DNA of 13,018 nt from Conexivisphaerales archaeon (GCA_049509455.1 JBEKZX010000041.1:1-13018), one strand, 5' to 3'. Positions 1-12,817 are shown, numbered from the stretch's first letter. Notes: generated from the sequence alone by a model not told the origin. Program-made: numbers and translations.

Positions 1-1190
1 CGACGGGGACACCCAAGGGCGTCGTCCACAGCACCGCCGGCTACATGCTCTGGTCCTACTATACGCAGAAGGTCGTCTTCGACGTCCAGGACGACGACAT
101 CTATTGGTGCACGGCGGACTGTGGTTGGGTTACAGGCCATACATATGTGGTCTATGGCCCGCTCCTAAGAGGTGTCACTTCGTTCATGTACGAGGGCGCG
201 CCCGATCACCCTGCCCCTGACAGATGGTGGGAAATGATCGAAAGGTACGGCGTCACCATACTGTACACTACTCCGACGTCCGTCAGGATGCATATGAAGT
301 ATGGAGAAGAGTGGGTGAAGAAACACGACCTACTCTCTCTTCGTTTGCTCGGTTCGGTGGGCGAGCCTATCAATCCCGAGGCCTGGCAGTGGTACTACAG
401 GAACGTGGGGAACCACCGATGCTCAATCGTTGACACGTGGTGGCAGACTGAAACTGGAGGTATAATGGTCTCCCCTCAGCCAGGAATCGCCAATATCCCG
501 CTGAAAGCGGGCTCTGCTACGCTCCCCCTGCCGGGCGTTGATGCCGACGTCATAACAGAAGATGGTAGGTCAGCTCGTCCCAACGAGAAGGGCTTCATGG
601 TCATAAAGAGGCCATGGCCGGGAGAGCTCATGACCGTCTGGGAGGACCCGAAGAGATTCAGGGAGGCATATTTCAAGAAGATTCCTGGAATGTACTTCGC
701 AGCGGACTATGCTATGAAAGACGAAGACGGCTACTTCTGGTTCCTCGGGAGGGCCGACGAGGTGCTCAAGGTCGCCGGCCATAGGATCAGCACAACCGAG
801 CTAGAGGACGTCCTGATCTCTCATCCAGCCGTGGCCGAGTCGGCGGTGATAGGGAAGTCAGACCCGATAAAGATGCAAGTACCCGTGGCGTTCGTCACCC
901 TCAGGCCAGATAGCAAAGCGTCACCACAGCTGAGAGTGGAGCTGATAAACCATGTGAGACACAACCTTGGATCCATAGCCGCACCAGAGAATATCTATTT
1001 CGTAAGCAAGCTACCCAAGACCAGGAGCGGGAAGATCATGAGACGCCTGCTGGGAGCCATCGTCGAAGAAAGGGCGCTGGGGGACATCACGACTCTGGAG
1101 GACGGAACGAGCATAGAGGAGGCAAAGCAGAGCTACGAGGAGTTGAAGACAGAATTGAAGGCCGTGCTTGTTGGAGTTGAAACATCGTGA
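1..1190 (+). CDS. acs: Acetyl-CoA synthetase (acetate-CoA ligase), 5'-partial; gene starts before the window
   Basis: The frame is open from base 3 (TGTPKGVVHSTAGY, the AMP-binding P-loop), so ATG45 is not the start. Also WCTADCGWVTGH, LGSVGEPINP, IVDTWWQTETGG, LGRADEVLKVAGHRI and the C-terminal LPKTRSGKIMRR with the catalytic/acetylated Lys. Confidence 0.95.
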   Translation, partial: TGTPKGVVHSTAGYMLWSYYTQKVVFDVQDDDIYWCTADCGWVTGHTYVVYGPLLRGVTSFMYEGAPDHPAPDRWWEMIERYGVTILYTTPTSVRMHMKYGEEWVKKHDLLSLRLLGSVGEPINPEAWQWYYRNVGNHRCSIVDTWWQTETGGIMVSPQPGIANIPLKAGSATLPLPGVDADVITEDGRSARPNEKGFMVIKRPWPGELMTVWEDPKRFREAYFKKIPGMYFAADYAMKDEDGYFWFLGRADEVLKVAGHRISTTELEDVLISHPAVAESAVIGKSDPIKMQVPVAFVTLRPDSKASPQLRVELINHVRHNLGSIAAPENIYFVSKLPKTRSGKIMRRLLGAIVEERALGDITTLEDGTSIEEAKQSYEELKTELKAVLVGVETS

Positions 1191-1792
1191 GCGTCACCAT
1201 GGATAAGGCCCTGGCGGCTGACCCCGCCCCTCTGGGGTTGGCAGCCTTCGCCTTCACCACCTTCCTGCTCAGCTTCGCCAACGCTGGATGGTTACCTTCG
1301 ACTACAACTGCTGTAGTGCTTCCCCTGGCGCTGGCCTACGGAGGCCTATGCCAGCTCCTTACGGGCGTCTTCGAGATGAGGAAGGGGAACACCTTCGGGT
1401 TCACGGCGTTCTGCAGCTACGGCGCCTTCTGGCTCTTCTACGCCCTCCTGGTGCTCCTTGCCAGCATGAGCATCATAACGCCCATCTCGAGCGCGGTGGG
1501 CGCGACCCTCATCCTGTGGGGGATATTCACGTTCTACATGTGGATACCGTCCATGAGCATAACCCGCGCCCTGAGCCTCGTCTTCCTCTTCCTCTGGATC
1601 ACCTTCTTCTTCCTCGGGGCGGGCGACCTCTACGGCATCTCCCGCCTGACGACCATAGGAGGGTACCTTGGAATCATCACCGCCTGCCTGGCGGCGTACA
1701 CCAGCTTCGCGATAGTGACCAACTCCGTCGTTGGTCCAGGAACCATCCCGCTAGGCAAGGGGATGGCATGGAGGAAGGCAAAGCCCAGCTGA
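1187..1792 (+). CDS. satP: Acetate uptake channel, GPR1/FUN34/YaaH (SatP) family, about 6 TM
   Basis: ADPAPLGLAAFAFTTFLLS (NPAPLGL-type signature) and GNTFGFTAFCSYGAFW. GTGA overlap with the acs stop; alternative start ATG1199. Confidence 0.9.
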   Translation: MSVTMDKALAADPAPLGLAAFAFTTFLLSFANAGWLPSTTTAVVLPLALAYGGLCQLLTGVFEMRKGNTFGFTAFCSYGAFWLFYALLVLLASMSIITPISSAVGATLILWGIFTFYMWIPSMSITRALSLVFLFLWITFFFLGAGDLYGISRLTTIGGYLGIITACLAAYTSFAIVTNSVVGPGTIPLGKGMAWRKAKPS

Positions 1793-1823
1793 AGGCGGGG
1801 ACAAGGACACGGTCGAAGTCTGA
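1786..1823 (+). repeat. Repeat copy 0: core plus 3' end only, overlapping the satP stop codon
   Basis: GGACAAGGACACGGTCGAAGTCT (1799-1821) matches GGACAGGGACACGGTAAAAGTCT of copy 1 at 20/23 nt and ends in the same frame (DKDTVEV* vs DRDTVKV*). CAGCTGAAG (1786-1794) precedes it, with 13 nt less spacing than in copy 1. Confidence 0.6.
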
Positions 1824-1883
1824 CTCGTTTGGAAGTCGGGCTTCTAGAGACATCCGATAGTAGCATTATTGGATGATCATATG

Positions 1884-1907
1884 TTGCAAATCCTACAAGG
1901 TTTGCAA
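1884..1907. terminator. Inverted repeat between convergent satP and AKR genes (possible terminator or binding site)
   Basis: TTGCAAA-T-CCT-aca-AGG-TTTGCAA: 10-bp stem with one bulge. Confidence 0.3.
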
Positions 1908-2010
1908 GGTACCTAAACCCTATTGGATACAGGTCCCGCTCGGGCCAGTTCCCTCTACAGCTGGATGTTCTCCTGCTCACGAAAGAAGGGTCTCTGACAA
2001 GATCCCCTGG

Positions 2011-2844
2011 TCAGGCCGGAGGAGGGTAGGCGTTCTCTAGCTCGGACCTGTCTTCGGCCGACATCCTCCAGCCGACGGACCCGATATTCTCCATGACGTG
2101 CGCCTCGTTTGAGGCCCTGGGAATGGGAAACACGTTCTCCTGCGACAGCAGCCAGTTGAGCGCCACCTGAGGAGCAGTCTTGCCGTACTTCTGCCCGATG
2201 CTCGACAGTACCCTGCTAGAGGTTAGCTTCCCATGCCCCAGCGGAAAGTACGCCAGGAGTGCCATGTTCTCCTTCCTGCAGTAGGGAAGTATCTCCTTCT
2301 CCATCCGCCTATCGGCGAGGTGGTAGGGCATCTGGTTCGACGCGAGGCGGTGCTTCTTCAGGGAATCGTTCGCCTCAACCATCTGTCTGAGCGAGAAGTT
2401 GGAGACGCCTATGTACCTGATGAGGCCCCTATCCACCATCTCCTCCATGGCGGACATGGTTTCCTTGATGGGCACGAAGGGGCTCGGCTGGTGGACCTGA
2501 TATAGGTCGACGTAGCCCAAGTTCAGCTTCCTGAGGCTCCTCTCAAGCGATTTCACGAGCGCGTCATGCCGCAGGTGGAGGAACATCACCTTGGTGGCGA
2601 TGAAGAGGTCCTCCCTCGGGAATCCGTCGATCGCCCTGGCGACAAGAGGCTCGGAGTTGTAGACTTCAGCCGTGTCTATCAGGCGGATGCCGCCATCGAG
2701 CCCCACCCTGAGTGCAGCCACCTTCGCCTCCCCTCCCGCGACGACGCCCGCCCGAGACTTGATGATCCACGGGAAGTCGTAGTAAGTGCCCATCCCCAGC
2801 GCGGTCACCTGCCTTGCCGTCCAGCCGAAGGATTTGCTTTCCAC
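2011..2844 (-). CDS. Aldo/keto reductase
   Basis: Catalytic tetrad motifs IDTAEVY (D,Y), LFIATKV (K), VDLYQVHQP (H), plus RYIGVSNFS and IPRAS. Family-like sequence starts at GTG2844 (MESKSFGWT); the ORF-track extension to 2937 looks non-homologous. Confidence 0.93.
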   Translation of the reverse strand: MESKSFGWTARQVTALGMGTYYDFPWIIKSRAGVVAGGEAKVAALRVGLDGGIRLIDTAEVYNSEPLVARAIDGFPREDLFIATKVMFLHLRHDALVKSLERSLRKLNLGYVDLYQVHQPSPFVPIKETMSAMEEMVDRGLIRYIGVSNFSLRQMVEANDSLKKHRLASNQMPYHLADRRMEKEILPYCRKENMALLAYFPLGHGKLTSSRVLSSIGQKYGKTAPQVALNWLLSQENVFPIPRASNEAHVMENIGSVGWRMSAEDRSELENAYPPPA

Positions 2845-2914
2845 GCGCCGCTCGCCCAGCACGGGCTCCGGAATCCCACCTAAACAAGTCTTGCTGACAT
2901 GACGAGGCCCTTGC

Positions 2915-3535
2915 TCAGCGCACCATGTACATCTCAAGCGGCGGCTGTGCTATCATGACGCTAGGGGGCAGATTCCTCGGCGGTATTCTCCGGCCGCCGG
3001 TCATCGCCTTCCGTCGCTTGTCTGTCGTCCTGACGAAGGGTTCCGCCTCCCGAGGCACCGCCCCCACCTCCTTCTCCGCTTCCCCCAGCTCGTGCCGCAG
3101 CTGGATGATATTCTCTTCAAATATCCTAATCAACCGTCTGAGCTGGGCCCGCTCGCTCGCACTCCATTCTTCACTATCCGCTCGCCGATGAGCTAGTTTG
3201 TATTTCATTCCCGTCATGGATGTGGTGTATTCATTAGCATTGAGCTTCCGCACATTCTGGCGGGCAAGTATGTACCAGTGGTATTCGGTGCCCACAGGAG
3301 CCCCTGATCCTTCGGGCGCGTTCCATTTCCTCAGTTTGTTCACAGCGTAGGTAAATTGCCATCTGTCGGGAGCGACCTTTGTCTCCTTCCATTCCCCTTG
3401 CCGATAGTACCAGCTATGGCTACCGCCAACCCTCATTCCGCTGTATTTCCTACCTTCGAATTCTTTGATGGCGTTGTAGCTCGCAGCTACATCCTCCACA
3501 CCCGCCGGCTTTCGGCTGATTGCGACCTCTCCCAT
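2915..3535 (-). CDS. Uncharacterised protein (YSGMxVGGSHxWxY...APEGSGAPVGTEYHWYILA motif), function unknown
   Basis: 206-aa ORF with dense aromatic/Gly motifs (GEWKETK, YHWYILA, KLNANEY, KYKLAHRR) that I recall from uncharacterised bacterial/archaeal proteins; TATA-like box 22-27 nt upstream. Confidence 0.85.
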   Translation of the reverse strand: MGEVAISRKPAGVEDVAASYNAIKEFEGRKYSGMRVGGSHSWYYRQGEWKETKVAPDRWQFTYAVNKLRKWNAPEGSGAPVGTEYHWYILARQNVRKLNANEYTTSMTGMKYKLAHRRADSEEWSASERAQLRRLIRIFEENIIQLRHELGEAEKEVGAVPREAEPFVRTTDKRRKAMTGGRRIPPRNLPPSVMIAQPPLEMYMVR

Positions 3536-3555
3536 GATGATTTAGAAGGTCAGCA

Positions 3556-3563
3556 GATATAAC
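3556..3563 (-). promoter_or_regulatory. Candidate TATA box for the 2915-3535 gene
   Basis: GTTATATC on the minus strand, 22-27 nt upstream of ATG3535, consistent with a leaderless archaeal transcript. Confidence 0.4.
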
Positions 3564-3763
3564 CACATACAATTCTCGATAGACCACTAGATAACCTTCC
3601 CAACTGATTCTCCTGTTCTTCTGGAATGGTAACGCTCGGGACAACCTAGTGGGAACCGAATCGACTCTGTGATGTTGACTTGGGATTCACCTAATTGGTT
3701 AGGTGCCTAGCGCCCTCTTCGCTCAGGGACAGCGTAGAACCTTAAAGGGCGCTCACCCCTATC

Positions 3764-3982
3764 ATGACGGTGATGTCGTCCGTCGTCGAGGAGGACACGA
3801 AGGGGGAGAGGGTGGCCTACAAGGACATGCACACTCTCTACGAGGCGGAGCAGAAGAGGGCCGACAGGCTGTCCAGGGACGAGGCCGCCAGGGAGCTGAA
3901 GAACTGAGAGAACTCTTCCTGGGTCGCGAAGCAGCTGAAGAAGGCCCTGGACCCCAAGGACAGGGACACGGTAAAAGTCTAG
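3764..3982 (+). repeat. Repeat copy 1: most complete copy, ~72-codon frame interrupted by TGA at 3905-3907
   Basis: MTVMSSVVEEDTKGERVAYKDMHTLYEAEQKRADRLSRDEAARELKN*ENSSWVAKQLKKALDPKDRDTVKV*. 151/171 nt identical to copy 3 and 125/147 nt identical to copy 2 (hand count). Confidence 0.95.
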
Positions 3983-4373
3983 AAGACAATTGCTCCAACG
4001 ATGCACTTATGCTAAGAACGCAAAGGCAAACAAAGGAAAGATGTCTCGGTCAAAACGCGCAGGCGATTTGAAAGAAGGCGATATCATAGAGCTTTAGGGA
4101 GTTCGAGTCAGACTGTCTCGCCACAGGAATTGCGATGTGTGTAATCCTAAACAAGATGCGAAGACCCCGACGAAGCTGAATCACCACGCTGAACATCACT
4201 ATGCATATACTGAATATGCCATAGGAGTGCTCGGCTTCAAGAACACGGTGCGATATTATGAAACAGTCGAATGACGATAGTTGAGGAAGCATTCCCGAGC
4301 GCCTGGTTTTTGCGCGGAAGAGCCTGCCGTACATTCGAACCTGACATGGCTAGGACCCAAAAGGTCCGTGGGC

Positions 4374-5099
4374 TCATTCTGTTGCTTTCGACTCCTGCAT
4401 CTCTTTGAGAAGACGGTTGACTTCGCCTAAGACAGTTCTGACGCGTTCACCTTCGTTTTGCTTCGAAGCGTAGGCGGCCTTGAGCCGATCTTCAAATCCC
4501 TTTTCGCCGAGGGTCTTAATATCGGCGTTCAAACGGAGAATTAGCTTCTTGGCCGAGCCCCTAGCGCTCAGTTCCCTGATCTTGTCCCAGTCTGCTCCCC
4601 TCACAAGCATCGCCACGTCTCTCAAGTCGGGGTCCCTTCCGGCGTGCAGCTTCATCGCAATCAGCAGTTCCCTTGAGGCCACCTTCGAGAGCACCGAGCC
4701 GCTGACGCCTGTCACCCGAAGCTCCCGCGACGTCTTTCGGATCTCTTCCTCCTTCCAGATTGCCTCTGTCTGGCGACATCTAACACCGCCAACCGACAGA
4801 TCTACAAAGACCTCATCCTGGCCTATTGTCTTGATGAACTTCCATGTCTCAAGTTTACTGGGCTCATCCCGATAGATCATTCCTTCGTTCGCGTAGCCCT
4901 GAGTCTTGAAAGATGACGCGAACCCATCGAATTGTAGATTTGCAATGACTATGTCGCAGTCTGCGGAGTACCGTGGAAGAGGAGAATATGCGTTGACTGC
5001 ATAGCCACCTATCAGTGTGAAGTTCTCTCTCATCCCGTAAATGGCTTGCAGCGTCCGGATGACTTCCGCTTCTCTTGCTACGAGGCTCTGGCGGATCAT
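4374..5099 (-). CDS. Nucleotidyltransferase, Pol-beta superfamily, AbiEii/MenT-like putative toxin
   Basis: LIGGYAV (GG motif), RYSADCD (RxSxDxD), LIAMKLHAGRDPDLRD (K..R..D..D). ATGA overlap with the upstream gene. Confidence 0.85.
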   Translation of the reverse strand: MIRQSLVAREAEVIRTLQAIYGMRENFTLIGGYAVNAYSPLPRYSADCDIVIANLQFDGFASSFKTQGYANEGMIYRDEPSKLETWKFIKTIGQDEVFVDLSVGGVRCRQTEAIWKEEEIRKTSRELRVTGVSGSVLSKVASRELLIAMKLHAGRDPDLRDVAMLVRGADWDKIRELSARGSAKKLILRLNADIKTLGEKGFEDRLKAAYASKQNEGERVRTVLGEVNRLLKEMQESKATE

Positions 5100-5722
5100 C
5101 TGGTCATCGGAACATCCTCATATTCAGCGTTCAGACCAAGATTGTATTTCTTATCGAGCATCTCTAGCGCTGGCGCATACGTGTACGGATCTCTTCGGCA
5201 GTACTCGACCACCTTGTCCAGAGGGTCGACGCTCAGCCCATCGACGAACGTATACCCGACGCTAGCCGTTAGCCTGAGGACAAAGTAGATGCCGTACAAT
5301 GTCTCTGCCGGTTTGGAACCCTCTACGATGCATTTCTTGTCGTTGATGGAGAAGAATGTCCTCCACTTCTCGTTGTCAGACTCGTTGACCTCGATGTATA
5401 TTGGATAAGACCCAAAGAACCTGTTCGCGTTGTACCCACCCTTGGTCCACACGAACACCCCGTCTACGTTGGTCAGAGCATAAGGAAGTCTAGACCTTTT
5501 CAAGAGATCATACGCGCCTCCGATATCGTATTTTGAGCTCAGGTAGCGGTCTGGGCTTTTGACTCTGTATTTTCCGCGGCCTATCCTTTCTAGGAGGCCT
5601 TTCTTTGTCATGTCGAATAGGACTTTGGATGGATCAGGACTAGAGAAAGCACTAGCGAAGTCTTCCGTCGTGAACTCTGACTTCCAGTTCCCCAGGATTG
5701 TCCAGAGCTCATAGTATGACAT
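5096..5722 (-). CDS. Winged-HTH protein, AbiEi-like putative antitoxin/regulator
   Basis: FTTEDF...KVLFDMTKKGLLERIGRGKYRV is the typical AbiEi-type wHTH signature (L.+.G.+.RI.RG.Y). Likely start ATG5722, which has a TATA-like box 25-30 nt upstream. Translationally coupled to the NTase. Confidence 0.75.
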   Translation of the reverse strand: MSYYELWTILGNWKSEFTTEDFASAFSSPDPSKVLFDMTKKGLLERIGRGKYRVKSPDRYLSSKYDIGGAYDLLKRSRLPYALTNVDGVFVWTKGGYNANRFFGSYPIYIEVNESDNEKWRTFFSINDKKCIVEGSKPAETLYGIYFVLRLTASVGYTFVDGLSVDPLDKVVEYCRRDPYTYAPALEMLDKKYNLGLNAEYEDVPMTR

Positions 5723-5726
5723 GCTG

Positions 5727-5754
5727 ATTACCACTGCAGTAATAGGTATATGAA
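5727..5754 (-). promoter_or_regulatory. Candidate TATA box and adjacent inverted repeat (possible autoregulatory operator)
   Basis: TTCATATACC on the minus strand (5754-5745). ATTAC-N7-GTAAT at 5727-5743 lies between the TATA box and ATG5722. Confidence 0.35.
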
Positions 5755-5803
5755 GACATCGCTCTGTAGAGGTCAAGGTCACGCGGCCGACTTTGAGTGG
5801 GAG

Positions 5804-6019
5804 CTAGTCTGTTTGGAGTATGGGGCCTATATCTTCCTCTGTTCGTCTTGCAGCTCCTTCGAAAGGGGAGAGGGACTCTGTCGTCACGAGAGAGGAGGTA
5901 GGGAGGAAGTTCGGACGAGGACTAATCGACCTGAGGGGACGGAAGGGATAGTCGATCTTGATGATATCGATCTCCTCTCCAACAGCAAACCGAGCGAGCT
6001 TCTCCTATACTACGCCCAT
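5804..6019 (-). pseudogene. Possible degraded ORF, MGVV*EKLARFAVGEEIDIIKIDY...
   Basis: The ATG overlaps the previous stop (TGATG); in-frame TAG at codon 5; no recognisable family. Confidence 0.2.
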
Positions 6020-6328
6020 CAAGGAGAGCTCAATCCAGCCTGGGCCGCCTCGGCTAGGATCTCTTCCGCCTGTTGATTCGCCTCTCGCATGTCAGCACTT
6101 TCGCCGACAGGCTCCCGGTAGACCCCGAATCGGTTATAGCAGTCGGCGCAGAACCAGGCGGGAGACTTGCCGCTGACGTAGAGGCACCCTCCCAGGAACG
6201 ACCTTTGATGGCCCGGCCCCTTCAGCTCCTTGGCCAACCTCTCGAAGTCTGGCAGGCCATACTCAATCGGTATTACGTTCGTGGAACCGCACTTCGGACA
6301 GGGTTCTGGCGAAGTACTTCAGTCTCAT
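6019..6328 (-). pseudogene. Frameshifted small Zn-ribbon protein (CxxC...YGLP...LGGC...WFCxxC)
   Basis: ATG6328 (4 nt after the upstream stop) gives MRLKYFART. Removing one base in the CCC run (plus-strand GGG 6301-6303) joins it to CPKCGSTNVIPIEYGLPDF...FLGGCLYVSGKSPAWFCADCYNRFG, 102 aa in total. The ORF track shows only the last 72 aa. Confidence 0.75.
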
Positions 6329-6332
6329 GGGC

Positions 6333-6848
6333 TCAGTACAGCGGGTTCAGCACCACCGGCTCGCAGCCCAGCATCTTCAGGATGGAGACGGCCCCGGAGG
6401 CCCTGATGGAGTCCCTATGGTTGGCCCAGGCCAGCCCGCTCCACGAGACGGCGTAGAAGATCACGTACTTCGTGACCCCCCTGCAGCGGGCGGAGACGTA
6501 CTCGATCGTTTCGAGCATGAGCTTCTCCTGGTCATCGTATTCCCCCATGACCACTATCGCCACCGGCTGGAAGCGTCCGGAGGCGAACCCCGGTATTATG
6601 GCCACGCCGTCCGGCAGGGGAGGGAGCTCCTTTCGAGGGAGCAGGTCGACGGGGAGGAAGTCGAGCTCGAATGAACCCAGAGTGTAGACGTCCCTCCCCA
6701 CCAGGCGCCCAACGATGCTGTCCCCGCCCCACACCCAGCTGTGGTCCCGGCTTTCGTTGAGGAGCTCCCTCTCGACGCTGGTCAGCTTCGAGAGGATGGA
6801 CTGGACCTCGGGCGGCAGCTTCCTGATCAGGAGAGGAGACACGGTCAA
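6333..6848 (-). CDS. Hypothetical alpha/beta protein
   Basis: Strong G/C third-position bias. SD-like GAGGTG (6861-6856) 7 nt before TTG6848 (GTG6842 is an alternative). Motifs AIIPG, ARCRGVTKYVIFY, W...W.NH. Confidence 0.8.
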   Translation of the reverse strand: MTVSPLLIRKLPPEVQSILSKLTSVERELLNESRDHSWVWGGDSIVGRLVGRDVYTLGSFELDFLPVDLLPRKELPPLPDGVAIIPGFASGRFQPVAIVVMGEYDDQEKLMLETIEYVSARCRGVTKYVIFYAVSWSGLAWANHRDSIRASGAVSILKMLGCEPVVLNPLY

Positions 6849-7026
6849 CACTAGGCACCTCGAGCGCAAACCATGAAACCCGTTCCCCTAATAATCGCTG
6901 GAGTTGGTAGGGATTTGACCTAGAGTGAATAAGAGGTGACGCTCCACGAAACGGTGATGTTGAGCTAGAAGCGGAGGAAGTGAAGTCGAAGTCATCAATG
7001 TAGGAGGGAATCAGAACCATCTAGGA

Positions 7027-7173
7027 CTCTACGAGGCCGAGCGGAAGAGGGCCGACAGGCTGTCTAGGGACGAGGCCGCCGGGGAGCTGGGGAACGAGGA
7101 GAACTCCGATTTGGTCACGAAGCAGCTGAAGAAGGCACTGGACCCCAAGGACAGGGAGGCCGTAGAAATCAAG
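7027..7173 (+). repeat. Repeat copy 2: lacks the 5' part, no start codon
   Basis: LYEAERKRADRLSRDEAAGELGNEENSDLVTKQLKKALDPKDREAVEIK; 125/147 nt identical to 3836-3982. Confidence 0.95.
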
Positions 7174-7276
7174 AACGAAGCGGCCCAAGATTTAATAGCA
7201 CAGTGATGTGCACGCCCTTTGAGCCTCCAATGAATGATCCGGCTGGGTTACACGAGTCACCGGCGGGACGGCACAG

Positions 7277-7750
7277 GTGATGACGATGAAGGAGGTGGTG
7301 CCGAGATCGTTCAGGAGAGCGGGCGTTCTTGCCGTGATCGCGGGTTTGGTCCTGATTGCGAGCGGCGTCAGATCGGGCTCAATACTCCTGACGGGCTTAG
7401 TCGATGCAGATGCATATCTCGGATTGAGCCTCGGTTCTGGCCAGTTGGTGGTGCAGCTTGCCATCCTATGCCTAACGTTCCTCGTCGGACTCGGAGGGTT
7501 ATTGGTGATCGTTGGAGGAGCTTTGCTCTTGCGCAGACATGGATCCTCGGGAAGGTCCCTCATAGGTCTCGGAGGAGGGACGGCGATCATCGGTCTACTG
7601 TTCTCCATGGGCGAGGCCTTGTACGCCTCCGGATTCTCAGCGCCCATATTTCACCAGACGTATTCTATCCTGTATTGGATTGGCGCGATTCTTGCGACGG
7701 CTTCGATCCTTCTTTCTAGGAGAGACCCCACGACCAAACCGATGATCTGA
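7277..7750 (+). CDS. Hypothetical 4-TM membrane protein
   Basis: Four Gly/Leu-rich hydrophobic segments with basic residues near both termini and in the central loop; clean ORF. Confidence 0.85.
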   Translation: MMTMKEVVPRSFRRAGVLAVIAGLVLIASGVRSGSILLTGLVDADAYLGLSLGSGQLVVQLAILCLTFLVGLGGLLVIVGGALLLRRHGSSGRSLIGLGGGTAIIGLLFSMGEALYASGFSAPIFHQTYSILYWIGAILATASILLSRRDPTTKPMI

Positions 7751-7820
7751 TCACGGCAGCGGCCCCTGGCGAGCCCAGCTTGATCATCCTGTTCAATCTA
7801 TCTCCCAGCTTCGCCGTTGT

Positions 7821-8040
7821 CTAAGCGTATCGTGACTGCAAGATGCGCATGGGGACGCCTCGTACTCCGCCAAGTTCCACGACTGCGGCAAGGAACCTCC
7901 GCGTTCGACTCGCTTCGGCAATCGAACCGTCGGTTGTTTCTCTTCATGTCTCCAACTGCCACCAGCCAGCCGTCCTACCGCGCATACTTCACCGTGAGGG
8001 AGAGCTTCCGGCCCGACCTGCGTCCCAGTTCCCGCCGCGC
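7821..8040 (-). pseudogene. Possible heavily eroded TnpB (IS200/IS605 OrfB) remnant
   Basis: Collinear motifs over three frames: RRELGRRSGRKLSLTVKYAR*DGWLVAVGDMK (cf. HKxSRxIVxYA...IxVGDL), SLPQSWNLAEYEA (cf. EYKA), GVPMRILQSRYA*T (cf. GIPVxxVxxxYTS). Recognition by eye only. Confidence 0.35.
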
Positions 8041-8114
8041 TTGCGGTGCCAGCAGGAGGAATCAGAGGTTACAGTCACTTGCCGGTGAGGAGATTCTCGC
8101 CCTTGACGAGCCGA

Positions 8115-8171
8115 TAGACCAGCAATCACCGCGAGGACACCAGCACTGAAAGAATATGCTTTCTCATCCAA
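8115..8171 (-). pseudogene. 5' fragment resembling the N-terminus of the 7277-7750 membrane protein
   Basis: MDEKAYSFSAGVLAVIAGL shares AGVLAVIAGL with 7319-7348; 21/30 nt identical and all 9 differences synonymous. Confidence 0.35.
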
Positions 8172-8196
8172 TTTCTTTGACGTTACTTCCCCCGTT

Positions 8197-8209
8197 GACT
8201 TAAATAGTC
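8197..8209. promoter_or_regulatory. Candidate TATA box, possibly bidirectional
   Basis: GACTTAAATAGTC: TTAAATA about 40 nt before TTG8247 (+) and TTTAAG 28-33 nt before TTG8171 (-), framed by GACT/AGTC. Confidence 0.45.
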
Positions 8210-8246
8210 GTCAGAAATATCAAAAAGACGGAAAGATGGTGAAGCC

Positions 8247-9908
8247 TTGAAGAGCAGGCTCTCTGCCAGGGAGAAATCCAAACTCCATAGCCTTGCCGAA
8301 TCCTTCGTCAAGAAAGAGAGCATTGTCGCCCTTTGCGCGTACGGCTCCAGGGTAGCGGGGTTTGCCAGAGAAGACTCTGATTACAACGTAATCGTTGTTG
8401 CGAAGGGCTTCGAGGAGGGAGTAAAGTCGACGCAAGCCGTGGCACCCATTCAGGCATCAGCGCTCATCGTAGACGAGTCAGTCCTGCGCGAAGAAGCGAG
8501 CAGGTCATCTCCTAGGGAGTTCGTCGTAGGCAGGTTTCTCAACATCTACGAACCGATAGTCGGTGCGGACCTCTTTCGAAGTGTGGAGCTGGAATACAAG
8601 AAGAGGATCATAGCCGAAGAGCTGATTGAAATCCAGTCCGAATATGGCGGCTTGGCTTCAAGCCTGATCCTTCCTTACGAGTACTTCCTTTTCGACAAGC
8701 TGCACAAGAGGGCCAGCGTCTTCCCCGAGGCGACCTACGCCTTTGCTAGCACCTACACATGCGTCAACAGGAAAGGGAACCTAGAGTTCACAGTTCGTGG
8801 GTTTCGCGAAGCGGCGGAATCTCTTGCTTCAAGCGGGGTGATAGAAATTACTGATGAATCGGTCAGGATCGTGCCCGGCGAGGTGCCCACGAATATACTC
8901 TCGAAGATAGTCACGCTCCTGTCACCCGCGAAGGAGGGTACCACCCAACCCACGGGCAAAGGTTACGATGTCTTGGCGGGAACCGGGGTCGTCGGAACCG
9001 ACGTTCACGCCGGGGCTTTAGGCAGAAGAGGGGCATTCAAGTCCCCAGTCGAGCTCGACCGTCCGAAGAAACTGCTCCGCCTCGAGGAAGGGGTTGTCTT
9101 TGATGACGCAAGTAAGATAAACGAAGAGCTTGCGCGGATGTCTGGGTTCCACGGAGCCTTCACCTTCAAAGAGAGGAAGAAGGGAGAGGTCTACACTTCC
9201 ACGCAGCTGCTCGAGATTTCGAGCCAAGGAAGACGAGTGGACTACGTCCTGAAGAGCTTTCCCGATCTGAAGTCCGTGAAGTGGGCGCTCCTCAACCTAT
9301 GGGCATTTACCGGCAAGAAATTCACCATGACTCCTTTTGCAAGACTCCAGCGGGAATATGAAGGTGTCAAACGGCTACGTGAACTTGGAATAGGTACTCA
9401 CAGCATAGTCGGTATCGCGCTGGACCAAAAGATCTTGGTTACGAAGTATGTGAAGGGAGCACCGCTCTCCAAGTTTGTCGATAGGGTAACTAGTGGGAAG
9501 AGCACAGACACCAAGTATGTCGAGAAGTATGCCAAGACCTTGGCAAAGCTACACAGCGCTGGTCTCGTATATGGAGACACAAAAGCAGATAACGCGTTCG
9601 TATGCCAAGGCGGAATCAGTCTTTTCGACCTCGAGCAAGCCGTTGAGAATGGCGATACGGCGTGGGATCTCGCTGAATTTCTCTACTTCTCCGCGAGGAG
9701 CGCTATGAAGGAGGAAGGGATGAAGCTCGTCGCTGACTCCTTCCTCGCGAGTTACCGAAAAGAGAATGGCACTCGAGCGATAGCGAAGGCGAAAAGCGTA
9801 AGATATCTGGTTCCGTTCCAGGCCTTCCTAGCGGCAGGGATGATTACGGTGATTAGAGATTCGCTTGAAGAATACTCGTCGGCTGCTAGTAGGGGCAGGA
9901 GTCATTGA
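8247..9908 (+). CDS. Fusion of N-terminal minimal nucleotidyltransferase-like domain and C-terminal Bud32/RIO/Kdo-like kinase
   Basis: N-term AYGSRVAGFAREDSDYNVIVV (GS..DxD-like). C-term YVLK (beta3 Lys), QREYE (alphaC Glu), LVTKYVKG, LHSAGLVYGDTKADN, LFDLEQA, WDLAEFLY. Confidence 0.88.
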   Translation: MKSRLSAREKSKLHSLAESFVKKESIVALCAYGSRVAGFAREDSDYNVIVVAKGFEEGVKSTQAVAPIQASALIVDESVLREEASRSSPREFVVGRFLNIYEPIVGADLFRSVELEYKKRIIAEELIEIQSEYGGLASSLILPYEYFLFDKLHKRASVFPEATYAFASTYTCVNRKGNLEFTVRGFREAAESLASSGVIEITDESVRIVPGEVPTNILSKIVTLLSPAKEGTTQPTGKGYDVLAGTGVVGTDVHAGALGRRGAFKSPVELDRPKKLLRLEEGVVFDDASKINEELARMSGFHGAFTFKERKKGEVYTSTQLLEISSQGRRVDYVLKSFPDLKSVKWALLNLWAFTGKKFTMTPFARLQREYEGVKRLRELGIGTHSIVGIALDQKILVTKYVKGAPLSKFVDRVTSGKSTDTKYVEKYAKTLAKLHSAGLVYGDTKADNAFVCQGGISLFDLEQAVENGDTAWDLAEFLYFSARSAMKEEGMKLVADSFLASYRKENGTRAIAKAKSVRYLVPFQAFLAAGMITVIRDSLEEYSSAASRGRSH

Positions 9909-10024
9909 TCGGATTCTCGCAACGCTGGGCTTGAATAACCGCACCCGGTTGTAAGATAGGGTTCGTTGAGGGGCCGCCCGTCCACCAATCGTACCAAGAT
10001 TGCATTGGAACGGCCGGTCCAGCG

Positions 10025-10196
10025 GTCGTCCGTCGTCGAGGAGGATACGAAGGGGAAGGGGGTGGCCTACAAGGACATGCACACGCTCTACGAGGCAGAG
10101 CAGAGGAGGGCCGACAAGCTGTCCAGGGGCGAGGCCGCCGGGGAGCTGAAGAACGAAGGGAACTCCGAATAGGTGACGGAGCAGCTGAAGAAGGCC
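10025..10196 (+). repeat. Repeat copy 3: 5' part plus core, lacks the 3' end, TAG at 10170-10172
   Basis: SSVVEEDTKGKGVAYKDMHTLYEAEQRRADKLSRGEAAGELKNEGNSE*VTEQLKKA; 151/171 nt identical to 3776-3946. Similarity stops 6 nt after CAGCTGAAG. Confidence 0.95.
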
Positions 10197-10331
10197 TCTT
10201 TATTAGACTCTGCAGGTTGATTCCATGCTTGAGGTCCATCCCAGACATGACGGAAGCTGCTCCAGCGCAGGTCATCTCCTCTCGCCCCCGGGCCCAAGGA
10301 TCGGAGGCGGCCAAGGAGGCCTAAGGCTATC

Positions 10332-10463
10332 ATGAGCAGGAATTTGGTTCAGTGCAGGTTCTGCGGGGCCTGGATCTACTTTGAGAGAAACGCCGAAACG
10401 GGAGGGACGGACGCAAAGAACCCAGACGGCACCATTCACAGGTGCAGTGGTGCATGGGGTTGA
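10332..10463 (+). CDS. 43-aa Zn-finger microprotein (CxxC...HxC), below the ORF-track cutoff
   Basis: MSRNLVQCRFCGAWIYFERNAETGGTDAKNPDGTIHRCSGAWG; SD-like GGAGG at 10315-10319. Confidence 0.7.
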   Translation: MSRNLVQCRFCGAWIYFERNAETGGTDAKNPDGTIHRCSGAWG

Positions 10464-10600
10464 CGGGCTCGTCGAACGAAGTCACATTGATGGTCATTCA
10501 TTCAATAGCCCGTCATATCCTTGACTGAGCCATCGGCTCTTGCGAATCGGACGCGACCGCTGGCCCGCCTTCTTCGGTTCCAACACTAGGCTCGAGTATT

Positions 10601-10608
10601 GGAAAAAC
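10601..10608 (-). terminator. Oligo-T terminator candidate for hsp20
   Basis: GTTTTTCC on the minus strand about 35 nt after the hsp20 stop. Confidence 0.35.
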
Positions 10609-10615
10609 AGATGGA

Positions 10616-10651
10616 GAAAGGGTTCACTGAACTGAAAGGGTTCACTGAACT
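10616..10651. repeat. Perfect 18-bp tandem duplication spanning the hsp20 stop codon
   Basis: GAAAGGGTTCACTGAACT at 10616-10633 and 10634-10651; each unit contains the palindrome GTTCA-C-TGAAC. Confidence 0.95.
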
Positions 10652-11151
10652 TTTAGTTTCCTGATCTTCTTTTGAGGCCTGGGCCCAAGCTTGGGAAGCT
10701 TCACTTCGAGTATGCCTTCGACAATGTGTGCTGACACTTTTTCCGTGTTTACCGTCTCGCCGAAGCCTATGTGCCTGTGGAAAGTGGAGAAGGCCCTCTC
10801 CCTGTGCAGATAGGTCTTTCCCTTCTCCTCCGTCTTCACATCAGATTTGGCGTTCAGCACCATTTCGTTCGGCCCGACTTCGATCTCCACGTCCTCCTTC
10901 TTGATCCCTGGAATCTCCGCTTTCACGACATACTCGTTGCCAGAGTCGATGACATCGACGTAGGGTATTCTCGTCGGCAGCTCATATTCAAGAGGCCACT
11001 CGAATCCCCTGAATGGATCCCACGGCATCAGGCGAAATGGCTCTAATATCTTGTTGAAGTCTTCAATCCAAGTGGGTTGAGGTTCTCTGACGGCAAGCTC
11101 AGGCTTCTTTTCCTTCTTAACGGCTAAGGTCCCTTCTTTCTTCTCAGACAT
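10642..11151 (-). CDS. hsp20: Small heat-shock protein, Hsp20/alpha-crystallin family
   Basis: PYVDVID..NEYVVKAEIPGIKKEDVEI, RER.FS.F.R.I, VSA...EGILEVKLPK and the C-terminal IXI-like KLKV motif. Confidence 0.95.
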   Translation of the reverse strand: MSEKKEGTLAVKKEKKPELAVREPQPTWIEDFNKILEPFRLMPWDPFRGFEWPLEYELPTRIPYVDVIDSGNEYVVKAEIPGIKKEDVEIEVGPNEMVLNAKSDVKTEEKGKTYLHRERAFSTFHRHIGFGETVNTEKVSAHIVEGILEVKLPKLGPRPQKKIRKLKVQ

Positions 11152-11241
11152 AATTATGCCTCAATTATTTTCATGGCAAGGGCTTGCTGTTATAGTTATG
11201 TGTGTTTATTGTTGCGTTTTTTCCAAACATGATCGACCACC

Positions 11242-11435: not shown

Positions 11436-12140
11436 TTGTCAAGCAAGAAGGCAACCATCCCTGCCGTGGTGGCATCCATCGTAACCCACAACCCAGCCCT
11501 CTATGAGTGTCTCAAACTGAAGATAATCAATTATCACGCCCTGGCCGCGAGCATCAAACCCGAGGTCGAGAGGTTGGCGGAGAGGCCCACCAGCGTCAAC
11601 ACGATTGTGGTCGCCCTGGTAAGGTTCTCCGATACCATCACCGAAGCTGTCACGCCTGAATCACTCCCCATCCTAAGGGACGCCAGAATAACGCTGGCCA
11701 GCGACGTGGTGGACGTGACCATCAAGGCCAAGAAGTCAGAGCTGTTTCTCATCGTGAAGCGGCTAGCCGAGCTATCTCCCACCCTGAGCGAGCCCATCCA
11801 CCTGTTCCAACTTTCCAGCTCGATCAAGCTGATCGCCGATGAAGGCGAGTATAACTCCTTGATCCGGCCGTCCCTTGACAAGATACAGATTGCGAGCGAA
11901 ACGACCCAGTTGTCAAGGTTGGACATCCACCTCTCCCCCGCCGTTGAAACGACCCCCGAGTTCGGGTTCTTCCTCACCGAATTGCTCTACCGCCAGGGGG
12001 TGAAGATACGCCATACCTACATCGGGGAAGAAACGATCTTAATCCTAGGCAGGGATGAAGGTTCGAGAGCGTACGGGATATTGCGGCAGGAGATAGACAG
12101 AAGCAGGACAGCTTCGGTTAAGGAAGAAGCCAAAGCATAG
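11436..12140 (+). CDS. Archaeal putative regulator with N-terminal helical (INYxALA) domain and C-terminal ACT-like domains
   Basis: NPALYECLKLKIINYHALAASIK...TIVVALVRF matches the pattern of archaeal ACT-domain regulators; C-term PEFGFFLTELLYRQGVKI...EETILIL is ACT-like. TTG start. Confidence 0.8.
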   Translation: MSSKKATIPAVVASIVTHNPALYECLKLKIINYHALAASIKPEVERLAERPTSVNTIVVALVRFSDTITEAVTPESLPILRDARITLASDVVDVTIKAKKSELFLIVKRLAELSPTLSEPIHLFQLSSSIKLIADEGEYNSLIRPSLDKIQIASETTQLSRLDIHLSPAVETTPEFGFFLTELLYRQGVKIRHTYIGEETILILGRDEGSRAYGILRQEIDRSRTASVKEEAKA

Positions 12141-12143
12141 TCC

Positions 12144-12168
12144 GAGGGGCCTGGCCGCTCAGCCCCTC
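12144..12168. terminator. GC hairpin directly after the ACT-gene stop
   Basis: GAGGGGC-N11-GCCCCTC between convergent genes. Confidence 0.3.
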
Positions 12169-12276
12169 CAGGCATCTCGAACGACGATTCTCTATCCTGC
12201 CATCGCCGAATTCGTCCAGGCAAGGTCCTAGGGTCCTTGCTGCAGAATAAAATAGCGACCTTATCTGAATTAAGTT

Positions 12277-12290
12277 GAAAGAAAGAAGGA
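12277..12290 (-). terminator. Pyrimidine-rich terminator candidate for the RAM-RAM gene
   Basis: TCCTTCTTTCTTTC on the minus strand 6 nt after the stop. Confidence 0.35.
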
Positions 12291-12295
12291 TTCGT

Positions 12296-12817
12296 CTACG
12301 CTGATACCGTCGGCTTGTAGACGAACGATGTTTCACTTGTTCTTATTCCGTCAATCTGCGAGATCTTCTGAATCGTATTCGCGAGAATCTCTTCGTAGGA
12401 TTCCCCTTTCACTGTTGCAAGGATGTCCCACTGGCCTGATACGACCGAGGCGTCCGATACTCCGGAGATGCTCATCAATGACTTCAGTATGTCCTGCACG
12501 GGTTTGTCCACCCTCAGGAACACTTGACCCATCGCGTGGGCGCCATTGCTATGTGCATTCGCCAGATATTCGTAGGGGTACATAGAGGTAGTCGAGAGTA
12601 CGCCGTTCATAGATCTGATCTCCTTGATTGCTGCGTAAGTCTTCTGCACGTCATTGCCCTTGAGTGAGGCTACGAGATCGAAGCGGCCGGAAGTGCTTCC
12701 GAACCAGTTTATGTAACTGACTTCCTTCAGCTTGTGCAACACTGCGTTAAGCTCGCGCTTTTCGACATTTGCGAACAAGTACGTCGGCTGCATGTTTGCT
12801 GTTAGTATATTAGTCAT
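12296..12817 (-). CDS. HTH-less Lrp/AsnC protein with two tandem ligand-binding (RAM) domains
   Basis: Internal duplication: SGRFDLVA...NGVLSTTS and SGQWDILA...DGIRTSETS (G.[YFW]D and GV..T.T motifs); no N-terminal HTH. Confidence 0.85.
   Translation of the reverse strand: MTNILTANMQPTYLFANVEKRELNAVLHKLKEVSYINWFGSTSGRFDLVASLKGNDVQKTYAAIKEIRSMNGVLSTTSMYPYEYLANAHSNGAHAMGQVFLRVDKPVQDILKSLMSISGVSDASVVSGQWDILATVKGESYEEILANTIQKISQIDGIRTSETSFVYKPTVSA

Follow-up and report, generated by a model that had tools for sequence, protein, structure and literature searches.

The 13,018-nt stretch of Conexivisphaerales DNA analysed here (GCA_049509455.1 JBEKZX010000041.1:1-13018; hereafter the window) is part of a flexible stretch of chromosome that measures at least 86 kb, and about 20 same-direction copies of one small gene mark many joints of this fast-changing accessory-gene stretch (>86 kb). 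We tentatively regard the region as an old one in which the direct gene copies are joints of homologous recombination: the copies would mark the joints because recombination between them reorders or swaps gene blocks. The original prediction, made from the window alone, had described an undescribed gene-accretion array. The tests that it called for showed clustered copies, reordered blocks and breakpoints at copies; a linked recombinase, a fixed core and specifically stress/defence cargo were not found.

Four decayed copies of a small gene

The window carries one small reading frame four times on the same strand, and none of these copies is functional (Table 1). All four had been predicted to lie in the same orientation, and all were found on the + strand. 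The shared word CAGCTGAAG matched exactly on that strand at 1786, 3932, 7123 and 10182, against 0.15 matches expected, and none of 200 shuffles reached four. The claimed identity of about 85-88% was borne out: relative to copy 2 (3775-3946), copy 4 (10025-10196, 172 nt) is 88% and copy 3 (7027-7175, 149 nt) 85% identical. Copy 1 consists of the 9-mer CAGCTGAAG and 23 nt (1799-1821, 20-21 of them matching the gene's last codons) and nothing more; we counted it as real since it is also present behind satP in G004, a better assembled relative (2.0 Mb) with homology to window 1-1822 in this region. Copy 2 is 90% identical to the one intact copy in the window's own genome, G000 (G000:C65:351-560), and 94% identical to copy a of G004; the TATA-like box is the only part of its promoter that is kept. 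Copy 3 has lost both start and stop codons, and a decayed part of about 65% identity reaches back to 6966; the match of copy 4 ends after GAAGAAGGCC. This cut point and the DNA downstream of it are also present in G004 (window 10133-10449 versus G004:C3:511260-511577, 90% identity).

The repeat is a genuine small gene of 69 aa that has its own promoter and is under selection. Eight intact orthologues gave dN/dS values of 0.07-0.2 (0.33 for one close pair), indicating purifying selection, and their upstream regions have in common a TGACCnATTGTCA palindrome and a TTTAA box. The whole unit begins some 95 nt upstream of the gene, ends about 8 nt after the stop codon and measures roughly 350 bp. 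The gene is an orphan seen only in one Conexivisphaerales genus (Nitrososphaerota) of soil and peat archaea: it occurs in 4/4 genus members versus 0/36 other relatives, as a single copy in most species and in unrelated surroundings in every one, with no synteny kept on either side. Viral contigs yielded no relative. An excisionase or MerR-type HTH identity of the 69-aa protein found no support: searched against Pfam at E<=10, the protein matched no HTH family, and its AF2 model shows, at low confidence (pLDDT 67), a beta-hairpin and two helices.

Table 1. Small-gene copies and other genes in the 13,018-nt window
Feature	Position	Strand	Evidence and remarks
Acetyl-CoA synthetase (ACS), C-terminal part	3..1190	+	Pfam AMP-binding, AMP-binding_C; start left of window
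SatP/YaaH-type acetate channel	1187..1792	+	Pfam Gpr1_Fun34_YaaH, E 2e-45
Copy 1	1786..1823	+	remnant of the small gene's last codons; overlaps satP stop codon
Aldo/keto reductase, cargo unit 1	2011..2937	-	Pfam Aldo_ket_red, E 8e-60
Hypothetical protein, 206 aa, cargo unit 1	2915..3535	-	no Pfam match
Copy 2	3739..3989	+	full-length pseudogene, frame 3773-3982, in-frame TGA 3905-3907
Hypothetical protein, 94 aa, cargo unit 2	4050..4334	-	no Pfam match; gene call in one population contig
AbiEii-like nucleotidyltransferase (NTase), cargo unit 2	4374..5099	-	weak Pfam AbiEii, E 0.0019, below curated cut-off
AbiEi-like winged-helix protein, cargo unit 2	5096..5782	-	Pfam AbiEi_4, E 2e-5; overlaps NTase start
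Hypothetical protein, 171-178 aa, cargo unit 2	6333..6869	-	
Copy 3	6966..7175	+	5' third decayed (~65% identity); 7027-7175 at 85%
Hypothetical protein, ~156 aa, cargo unit 3	7277..7750	+	no Pfam match; called in population contigs
Pol-beta-type nucleotidyltransferase + RIO/Kdo-type kinase fusion, 553 aa, cargo unit 3	8247..9908	+	Pfam RIO1, E 2e-5; Polbeta, E 8e-4
Copy 4	10025..10196	+	gene's 5' three quarters; no ATG; in-frame TAG 10170-10172
HSP20 small heat-shock protein	10642..11151	-	Pfam HSP20, E 2e-19; convergent with copy 4
Right flank: DUF7523-like gene (+), Lrp/AsnC regulator (-)	11436..12817	mixed	

The cargo in the intervals between copies is mutually unrelated, as had been claimed. 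Lying on both strands, it consists mostly of common cellular accessory genes and not specifically of stress or defence genes, and the 'possible tnpB remnant' proposed for cargo unit 3 found no support in Pfam. ACS (655 aa at full length in population contigs), satP and copy 1 form a single block that is found in G004 too. The aldo/keto reductase gene is 95% identical to G004:C3:561888-562874, which occupies another position in the G004 array, and the gene for the 206-aa protein matches G004:C3:541916-542631 at 93% identity, with a 66-nt reductase relic adjoining it there. The region of the 171-178 aa hypothetical protein (window 6337-6933) shares 78% identity with G004:C3:522890-523486; relatives of this gene lie directly upstream of a full small-gene copy in G004 and on C65. 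Neither the ~156-aa hypothetical protein nor the NTase-kinase fusion had a match in G004. The right flank is 85% identical to G001:C25:168589-170179, and the HSP20 gene body is absent at the corresponding place in G001.

A flexible region with shuffled gene blocks

All 18 DNA matches to the small gene in G004 lie within 86 kb (C3:482-568 kb, minus strand), so that the copies are confined to one flexible region rather than scattered over the genome. Local BLAST finds about 21 matches in this array, of which the small gene is the sole substantial repeat. The most upstream copy in G004 is full length and two further full copies lie inside the array; on C65 3' fragments precede the intact copy, contig ends limiting the view. 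The cargo between the G004 copies is not duplicated and the blocks share no backbone. About 68 kb of the array annotated with Pfam contain cellular accessory genes throughout, with no plasmid or virus hallmarks. On two other contigs (L068 and L070), 9-10 kb of plain metabolic genes lie beyond the fragments.

Relatives were found to carry either different cargo, an outcome that the original prediction had named as support, or the same blocks reordered with orientation kept. Six G000 contigs map onto the G004 array as blocks of 0.4-3.7 kb at 85-95% identity in changed order, and all but one of the alignments listed are co-oriented. A metagenome contig (L060) carries blocks B-A where G004 has A-B, with gene fragments adjoining each. 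Because copy identity is 74-96% and many copies are orthologous between G000 and G004, the small-gene copies must be old.

The ends of shared blocks coincided with fragments 5-7 times more often than expected: in G004, 10/39 lay no more than 30 nt from a fragment (1.4 expected, p<0.0002), and in G000 8/39 did so (1.7 expected). Synteny breaks at copies in part only: for 18/39 block ends the nearest fragment is more than 200 nt away. Fragments with the gene's 3' end number about 21, versus about 6 with the 5' end, and some 20 of the 21 lose their match 0-10 nt past the stop codon, where at least 12 unrelated right flanks begin. Ten left ends cluster at positions 164-177 of the 330-nt query, and left ends recur at about 147, 168 and 240, all with unrelated flanks. 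Overall, the fragment ends are heterogeneous and fall at many positions, with no one fixed crossover core; in one copy, an internal deletion runs between the gene's two GAAGAAGGC words.

At least eight independent assemblies, made from other samples, contain the entire 13,018-nt arrangement at 99.8-99.98% identity; it is therefore neither a misassembly, which the original prediction had named as a possible refutation, nor an actively shuffling system. The proposed addition or exchange of cargo does not hold for the window's own population, where the arrangement is fixed. One strain variant (L076) differs just left of the window, with one crossover inside the ACS gene, and a further small-gene fragment lies about 160 nt upstream of ACS.

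The recombinase sought next to a copy was absent. Profile searches with PF00589, PF07282, PF00665 and PF00239 gave no match inside the array, and neither 96 kb of G004 nor the DNA adjoining any G000 copy contains a tyrosine or serine recombinase, an rve or a TnpB. Matches to PF00589 (G000:C100; G004 C5, C4 and C3:399 kb) all lie outside the arrays and do not adjoin them, and the sole TnpB on C65 is an insertion specific to G000.

We compared the repeat with known types. Co-oriented sites part unrelated cassettes in an order that varies between relatives, as in integrons and CALINs; a complete integron was rejected as no IntI-type tyrosine recombinase lies beside the array. The 3' fragments, folded as single-stranded DNA on both strands, gave z-scores of -0.9 to +0.2 versus shuffles, and the repeat codes for a protein and evolves under purifying selection, which speaks against attC sites. 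Direct repeats of a target gene's 3' part with one intact copy are what a series of attL/attR sites would present; integrase, integrase relic and element backbone genes are absent between the repeats. The ends of IS200/IS605 elements were dismissed (PF07282 and PF01797 match neither the window nor the G004 array, and there is no hairpin), as was a CRISPR array, the repeats being gene pieces of 40-280 nt set 2-3 kb apart with genes between them and no Rfam match. The repeat accordingly has no attC- or CRISPR-like structure, as first described, and it also has no terminal repeats or target duplications; a transposase is likewise absent. Elsewhere in the same genome, genes on other contigs are separated by short co-oriented sites of a distinct second family (GTGGGCTTGGACCTGCGAA, at least 45 copies).

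Possible routes of block exchange

Recombination between dispersed direct repeats is ordinary, and homologous recombination between copies is the agent of exchange that we tentatively favour. In the lineage of G000 and G004, whole gene units would have multiplied in direct orientation and come to lie between accessory-gene blocks of one region of at least 86 kb, the first of them perhaps seeded by Campbell-type integration of DNA with the gene or its 3' part. These direct copies would serve as portable homology. Recombination between two of them would delete a block or loop it out, while re-insertion at another copy, unequal crossing-over and exchange with DNA of related strains would move or replace blocks and never invert them, so that their order would be shuffled and their orientation conserved. 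Surplus copies would be dispensable, and would accumulate stop codons and erode mostly from the 5' side.

The clustered, co-oriented copies, their coincidence with breakpoints and the shuffling with orientation kept are consistent with this explanation, and ends at many positions fit homology-driven exchange plus erosion rather than a single core. The array without enzymes, the cellular cargo free of plasmid or virus hallmarks and the L076 crossover inside ACS point the same way. However, homologous recombination alone cannot newly join a fragment to unrelated DNA, whereas the right flanks comprise at least 12 unrelated sequences, and the sharp recurrent ends (positions 164-177; past the stop) look more like site-specific joining. 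Erosion explains the 3' excess (~21 to 6) only with an extra assumption, copies of 74-96% identity are a poor substrate for present-day homologous recombination, the 18/39 block ends away from fragments are not accounted for, and no recombination intermediate was observed.

Serial site-specific integration is possible but rather unlikely. Elements whose attP carried the gene's 3' end would each have left an attR 3' fragment, their integrases and backbones being lost later and the remains reshuffled; in Sulfolobus, genes are reportedly captured after integrase loss. The predominance of 3'-end fragments, the sharp right boundary just past the stop codon with its unrelated flanks and the recurrent left ends (~147, 168, 240) argue for such a history, and the fragments followed by metabolic genes on L068 and L070 are as expected of an outermost attR. 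Thaumarchaeal iMGEs are known to use the 3'-distal parts of protein genes as integration targets and to form tandem stacks (Krupovic et al. 2019, PMC6563490). Arrays of a target gene's 3' fragments are a known scar of serial integration (PMC6563490), and 'undescribed' was thus too strong a word. Like the tandem integrated elements that archaea carry at the 3' ends of tRNA and protein-coding genes, the region combines an intact target gene with co-oriented direct repeats of its 3' portion, foreign or accessory DNA between them and a right repeat edge just beyond the stop codon. Unlike them, it has no integrase, relic or common backbone in 96 kb and consists of small blocks (0.4-3.7 kb) of cellular genes. 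A simple attL/attR series predicts neither the several full-length, promoter-bearing copies inside the array nor the 3' fragments upstream of the intact copy on C65; the lack of a small-gene relative in viral contigs also speaks against it, and the repeats, reaching 100-280 bp, are longer than crenarchaeal att sites (29-69 bp; PMC6563490).

Less probable still is a dedicated integron-like cassette system, in which a trans-encoded recombinase would use the small gene's tail as a site to insert, excise and reorder blocks. It would suit the co-oriented joints, the shuffled order with orientation kept, the permuted adjacent blocks, the sharp right boundary and a recombinase-free array like a CALIN, and the GTGGGCTTGGACCTGCGAA family of the same genome suggests that some trans-acting cassette machinery may exist. 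Against it stand the missing common core and hairpin, the heterogeneous fragment ends, multi-gene blocks on both strands, an arrangement frozen across at least eight population assemblies, the half of block ends without a fragment and the lack of any linked candidate enzyme.

It is highly improbable that the copies are a passive family of old tandem or segmental duplicates, decaying without part in the rearrangements: their age and the stable population arrangement agree with this, but the breakpoint enrichment does not, the unduplicated cargo argues against segmental duplication, and the strict co-orientation of about 20 copies is left unexplained. Least credible of all is a small-gene unit (~350 bp, promoter to stop) that itself copies into intergenic sites among ordinary resident genes, since its fairly sharp ends (~95 nt upstream to 8 nt downstream) and unrelated contexts in every species are offset by the lack of terminal repeats, target duplications and transposase, the restriction of copies to one region and one strand, and the single copy in most species.

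Relation to known arrays

Two further known systems share features with the array. Rhs/CdiA 'orphan' arrays combine a full gene with same-direction 3' fragments that bear different DNA and are reportedly exchanged through homologous recombination. The present array likewise has a full-length gene with co-oriented 3' fragments bearing different DNA, but these fragments have no variable coding tail or immunity partner, and the DNA joined to them bears no relation to the repeated gene. Exchange of flexible genomic islands takes place by homologous recombination via conserved flanking sequence, and the replacement of accessory genes at strain and species level with crossovers in shared sequence (e.g. 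ACS in L076) is similar; here, however, the shared sequence occurs about 20 times inside the island and does not merely flank it.

Integrase-less attC clusters (CALINs) include archaeal ones (Ghaly et al. 2022, PMC9668308). Integron arrays and CALINs share with this region the co-oriented repeated joints between unrelated blocks, the order shuffled with orientation kept and, for CALINs, the recombinase-free array. In contrast to them, the joint here is a protein-coding gene or a fragment of it instead of a folded attC; IntI, a single crossover point and any sign of recent activity are lacking, and the cargo lies on both strands, often as several genes. If the integron-like reading were true, unlikely as we consider it, Nitrososphaerota would have a system that functions like integrons but uses a coding, unfolded site, perhaps kin to the GTGGGCTTGGACCTGCGAA short-site family of the same genome.

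Four pieces of one small gene in the window

Four matches to the 9-mer CAGCTGAAG, all on the plus strand (1786, 3932, 7123 and 10182), are present in the window against 0.15 expected, and each sits within one of four pieces of a single sequence. This bears out the original prediction of four same-orientation copies of one small frame, whose translation reads MSSVVEEDTKG...DPKDRDTVEV. The table lists their lesions; none of the four copies (0/4) is functional. The cargo between the copies had been described as mutually unrelated, as the gene content of units 1-3 confirmed; a possible tnpB remnant proposed for unit 3 found no Pfam support. The GC content of the units is 54-57%, compared with 58.2 ± 2.9% for the genome. 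The window has no tRNA and no Rfam match, ruling out tRNA-linked integration or a known RNA.

Misassembly, a concern raised together with the prediction, was also ruled out. At least eight independent assemblies from other samples agree with the window at 99.8-99.98%, and the 13-kb arrangement is therefore real and fixed in the population.

Coordinates and content of the features discussed (G000, genome of the window; G001-G004, other genomes of the genus; C, contig; L, contig sequence, some from metagenomes or populations; ACS, acetyl-CoA synthetase; SatP, acetate channel)
Feature	Location	Strand	Description
Copy 1	window 1786-1823	+	38-nt relic across satP stop codon
Copy 2	window 3773-3982	+	full length; in-frame TGA
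Copy 3	window 6966-7175	+	5' third decayed
Copy 4	window 10025-10196	+	without start; TAG; cut after GAAGAAGGCC
Unit 1	between copies 1 and 2		aldo/keto reductase, 206-aa protein
Unit 2	between copies 2 and 3		AbiEi/AbiEii-like pair, small hypothetical proteins
Unit 3	between copies 3 and 4		156-aa protein, nucleotidyltransferase-kinase fusion
Fusion gene of unit 3	window 8247-9908		553 aa; Pol-beta-type nucleotidyltransferase and RIO/Kdo-type kinase domain (weak Pfam scores); not found in G004
Left flank	window		ACS, SatP
Right flank	window		HSP20, DUF7523-like gene, Lrp regulator
HSP20 body	window 10484-11054		insertion/deletion difference between species
ACS-SatP and relic copy 1	G004 519.7-521.6 kb
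Reductase	G004 561.9-562.9 kb
206-aa gene	G004 541.9-542.6 kb
Copy 4 and downstream DNA	G004 511.3-511.6 kb
Intact small gene	G000:C65:351-560		sole intact copy in G000
TnpB gene	G000:C65 ~4400-5560	-	IS605 family; within array
ParB-like gene	G000:C70:14366-15454 (L089:967-2055)		362 aa; ParB_N, HTH_ParB and ASCH domains
DUF1156 gene and SNF2 helicase	G004:C3 ~568-575 kb (L042:1188-7234)		adenine-methylase-like gene; 1118-aa helicase with NOV_C domain
GTGGGCTTGGACCTGCGAA on C58 of G000	249, 1719, 3525, 5681, 6402, 10292, 12516, 13407	+

The resident gene and the extent of its array

The window is the complete contig C77 of its genome, a MAG of 2.05 Mb in 140 contigs (G000), which holds one intact copy of the gene. 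Intact orthologues are present in 4/4 other genomes of the genus and in 0/36 genomes from the wider family, order and class. The small gene is protein-coding and under purifying selection: compared in pairs, eight intact copies mostly give dN/dS values of 0.07-0.2 (0.33 for one close pair), with dS reaching more than 1. The 69-aa protein matches no Pfam family, and its look-alikes in the protein atlas are all unnamed; its AF2 model, of low confidence (pLDDT 67), shows a beta-hairpin and two helices. No small-gene relative was found in viral contigs, ruling out a viral origin.

About 95 nt upstream are common to the intact copies, including the TGACCnATTGTCA palindrome and a TTTAA box. Aligning the copy on C65 of G000 (palindrome ~65 nt before the ATG), copies a-c of G004 and those of G002 and G003 gave the conserved form TGACC(A/G/T)ATTGTCA, ~20 nt upstream of the TTTAA box, with conservation continuing to about -95. 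The palindrome probably serves a regulator as its operator, and the window's pseudocopies have lost it. In a G002-like contig, HSP20 immediately precedes the intact small gene in the same orientation, and in G001 the stretches on either side of the HSP20 body (window 10308-10483 and 11055-11162) are adjacent. The ParB-like gene adjoins a small-gene copy in G000; relative to the intact gene, it stands 170 nt downstream in G003 and 3.3 kb upstream in G001, a recurrence that could hint at a plasmid-derived origin.

Of the further copies and fragments in G000, six are on C65, three on C70 and two on C24, with others on C25, C98, C122 and C67. The array region is spread across at least six contigs of this genome, a warning for MAG assembly. 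The better assembled relative G004 (10 contigs, nearly contiguous) carries all of its genome DNA matches (18/18) on contig 3, at 482-568 kb on the minus strand; the copies are thus not scattered genome-wide, the outcome that the prediction had set against itself. A local search gave ~21 matches, three of them full length. K-mer counts and self-comparison of these 96 kb identified the small gene as the sole substantial repeat, ruling out segmental duplication of whole blocks as the main process. Each of the other three species carries a single intact copy plus one or two fragments, and another population has a single copy with no fragment in 20 kb.

The annotated part of the G004 array (~68 kb) encodes TBP and TFB paralogues, ACS-SatP, an M29 peptidase, GNAT, an ECF transporter, permeases, XPB-Bax1, helicases, a xanthine-dehydrogenase-like enzyme, a DUF87 ATPase and many hypothetical proteins. 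Immediately upstream of its first full copy stand the DUF1156 gene and the SNF2 helicase, which look like a DISARM-type defence module. The TnpB gene on C65 of G000 is absent from the G004 array. It directly precedes a fragment in which the small gene's final 19 nt are followed by ~70 nt of downstream flank, the latter common to four copies. An rve gene adjoining the intact copy in another population is an incidental IS relic; neither G000 nor the G004 array contains rve.

G000 contains a second repeat family, unrelated to the small gene. GTGGGCTTGGACCTGCGAA has at least 45 copies, co-oriented within nearly every contig, and parts gene-sized intervals on C58 (table), C69, C112, C3, C93, C51, C96 and others. 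This short-site array looks more integron-like than that of the window. We found no clear relation between the two, as the window lacks GTGGGCTTGGACCTGCGAA and the G004 array has two weak matches, one of which directly follows a gene fragment.

Block order between relatives

We turned six G000 contigs so that their repeats face one way and mapped them onto the G004 array. They matched as blocks of 0.4-3.7 kb at 85-95% identity, in another order, with orientation conserved in all listed alignments except one. The AbiE pair and unit 3 have no match in the G004 array. The prediction that relatives would differ in content between the copies is supported. The metagenome contig L060 carries as B-A two blocks that stand as A-B in G004, with gene fragments adjoining the blocks in both. 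Among the 39 shared-block ends, 10 lie within 30 nt of a fragment in G004 (1.4 expected; 0/5000 randomisations as high), 8 in G000 (1.7 expected) and 13 in either genome, while 18 have no fragment inside 200 nt.

Copies within a genome are 74-96% identical. Many fragments, together with their flanks, are common to G000 and G004; much of the array is therefore older than the split of the two. We found no movement within the window's own population, with one exception, a variant represented by contigs L076/L082. These differ from L074/L075 (C91 of G000) in the genes left of ACS, with the window 99.9% identical; the 5' part of their ACS is 94% identical and an extra small-gene fragment lies ~160 nt upstream of it. 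The pattern is that of replacement by homologous recombination.

Fragment edges and the origin of the array

Our preferred reading, taken tentatively at a little under even chances, is that the region is old and flexible and that direct copies of a small resident gene, multiplied within it, serve as homology for block changes. The direct copies would support deletion, re-insertion and exchange of blocks, and surplus copies would erode. Blocks common to different contexts often keep gene pieces on both sides, differently truncated, which suggests that the ancestral array had a copy at every joint and has since eroded.

About 21 fragments contain the gene's 3' end, versus about six 5' pieces and about eight internal pieces. 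In ~20/21 of the 3'-end fragments similarity stops 0-10 nt past the stop codon, and the sequences to their right fall into at least 12 unrelated kinds. Left edges are variable: of ~38 in all, 10 are at positions 164-177 of the 330-nt small-gene query, with unrelated left flanks, and smaller groups lie near 147 and 237-252. The 3'-cut pieces stop at 228-243, and one copy shows a deletion inside the gene, between its two GAAGAAGGC words. We ruled out a single crossover core, whether CAGCTGAAG or the CCCTG..CAGGG region, as the ends fall at many positions in loose clusters only. GTCTAGAAGAC, a small palindrome located at the stop codon, was rejected as a site, not being conserved among orthologues. 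No attC-like or other hairpin was found in the fragment, in agreement with the prediction on this point.

Homologous recombination alone does not produce a right edge this sharp, left edges that recur or such a surplus of 3' pieces, and these features leave room for two site-specific readings. Decayed serial integrations into the 3' end of the small gene, which these three features favour, are unlikely but deserve weight: the repeats of the array bear the signature of tandem integrated elements, and thaumarchaeal elements habitually integrate into gene 3' ends (PMC6563490). However, the array lacks an integrase and an element backbone; profiles for Phage_integrase, TnpB, Y1 transposase, rve and resolvase had no match in the G004 array or beside the G000 copies, and the recombinase sought next to a copy did not materialise there. 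Tyrosine recombinases of 476-524 aa are encoded away from the copies, at G000:C100 and G004:C3:399 kb. The same three features would fit an integron-like system whose recombinase acts in trans, a reading that we consider improbable. Functionally, the array resembles a sedentary cassette array or CALIN (PMC9668308) but has no attC, no IntI and no single crossover. That the copies form a passive decayed family is very doubtful, and a self-copying gene unit is more doubtful still.

Non-ammonia-oxidising Nitrososphaerota are uncultured, and to our knowledge little is known of how they gain and lose accessory genes. The array gives gene turnover in this group a concrete architecture, a flexible region spanning 86 kb or more whose joints are ~20 co-oriented copies of one small resident gene and whose blocks are reordered or replaced between species with orientation conserved. 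If only homologous recombination is at work, this would be a clean natural case of a repeated resident gene making its region a landing pad for accessory genes; the involvement of a site-specific enzyme would make it a cassette system of a new kind, not belonging to the integron family.
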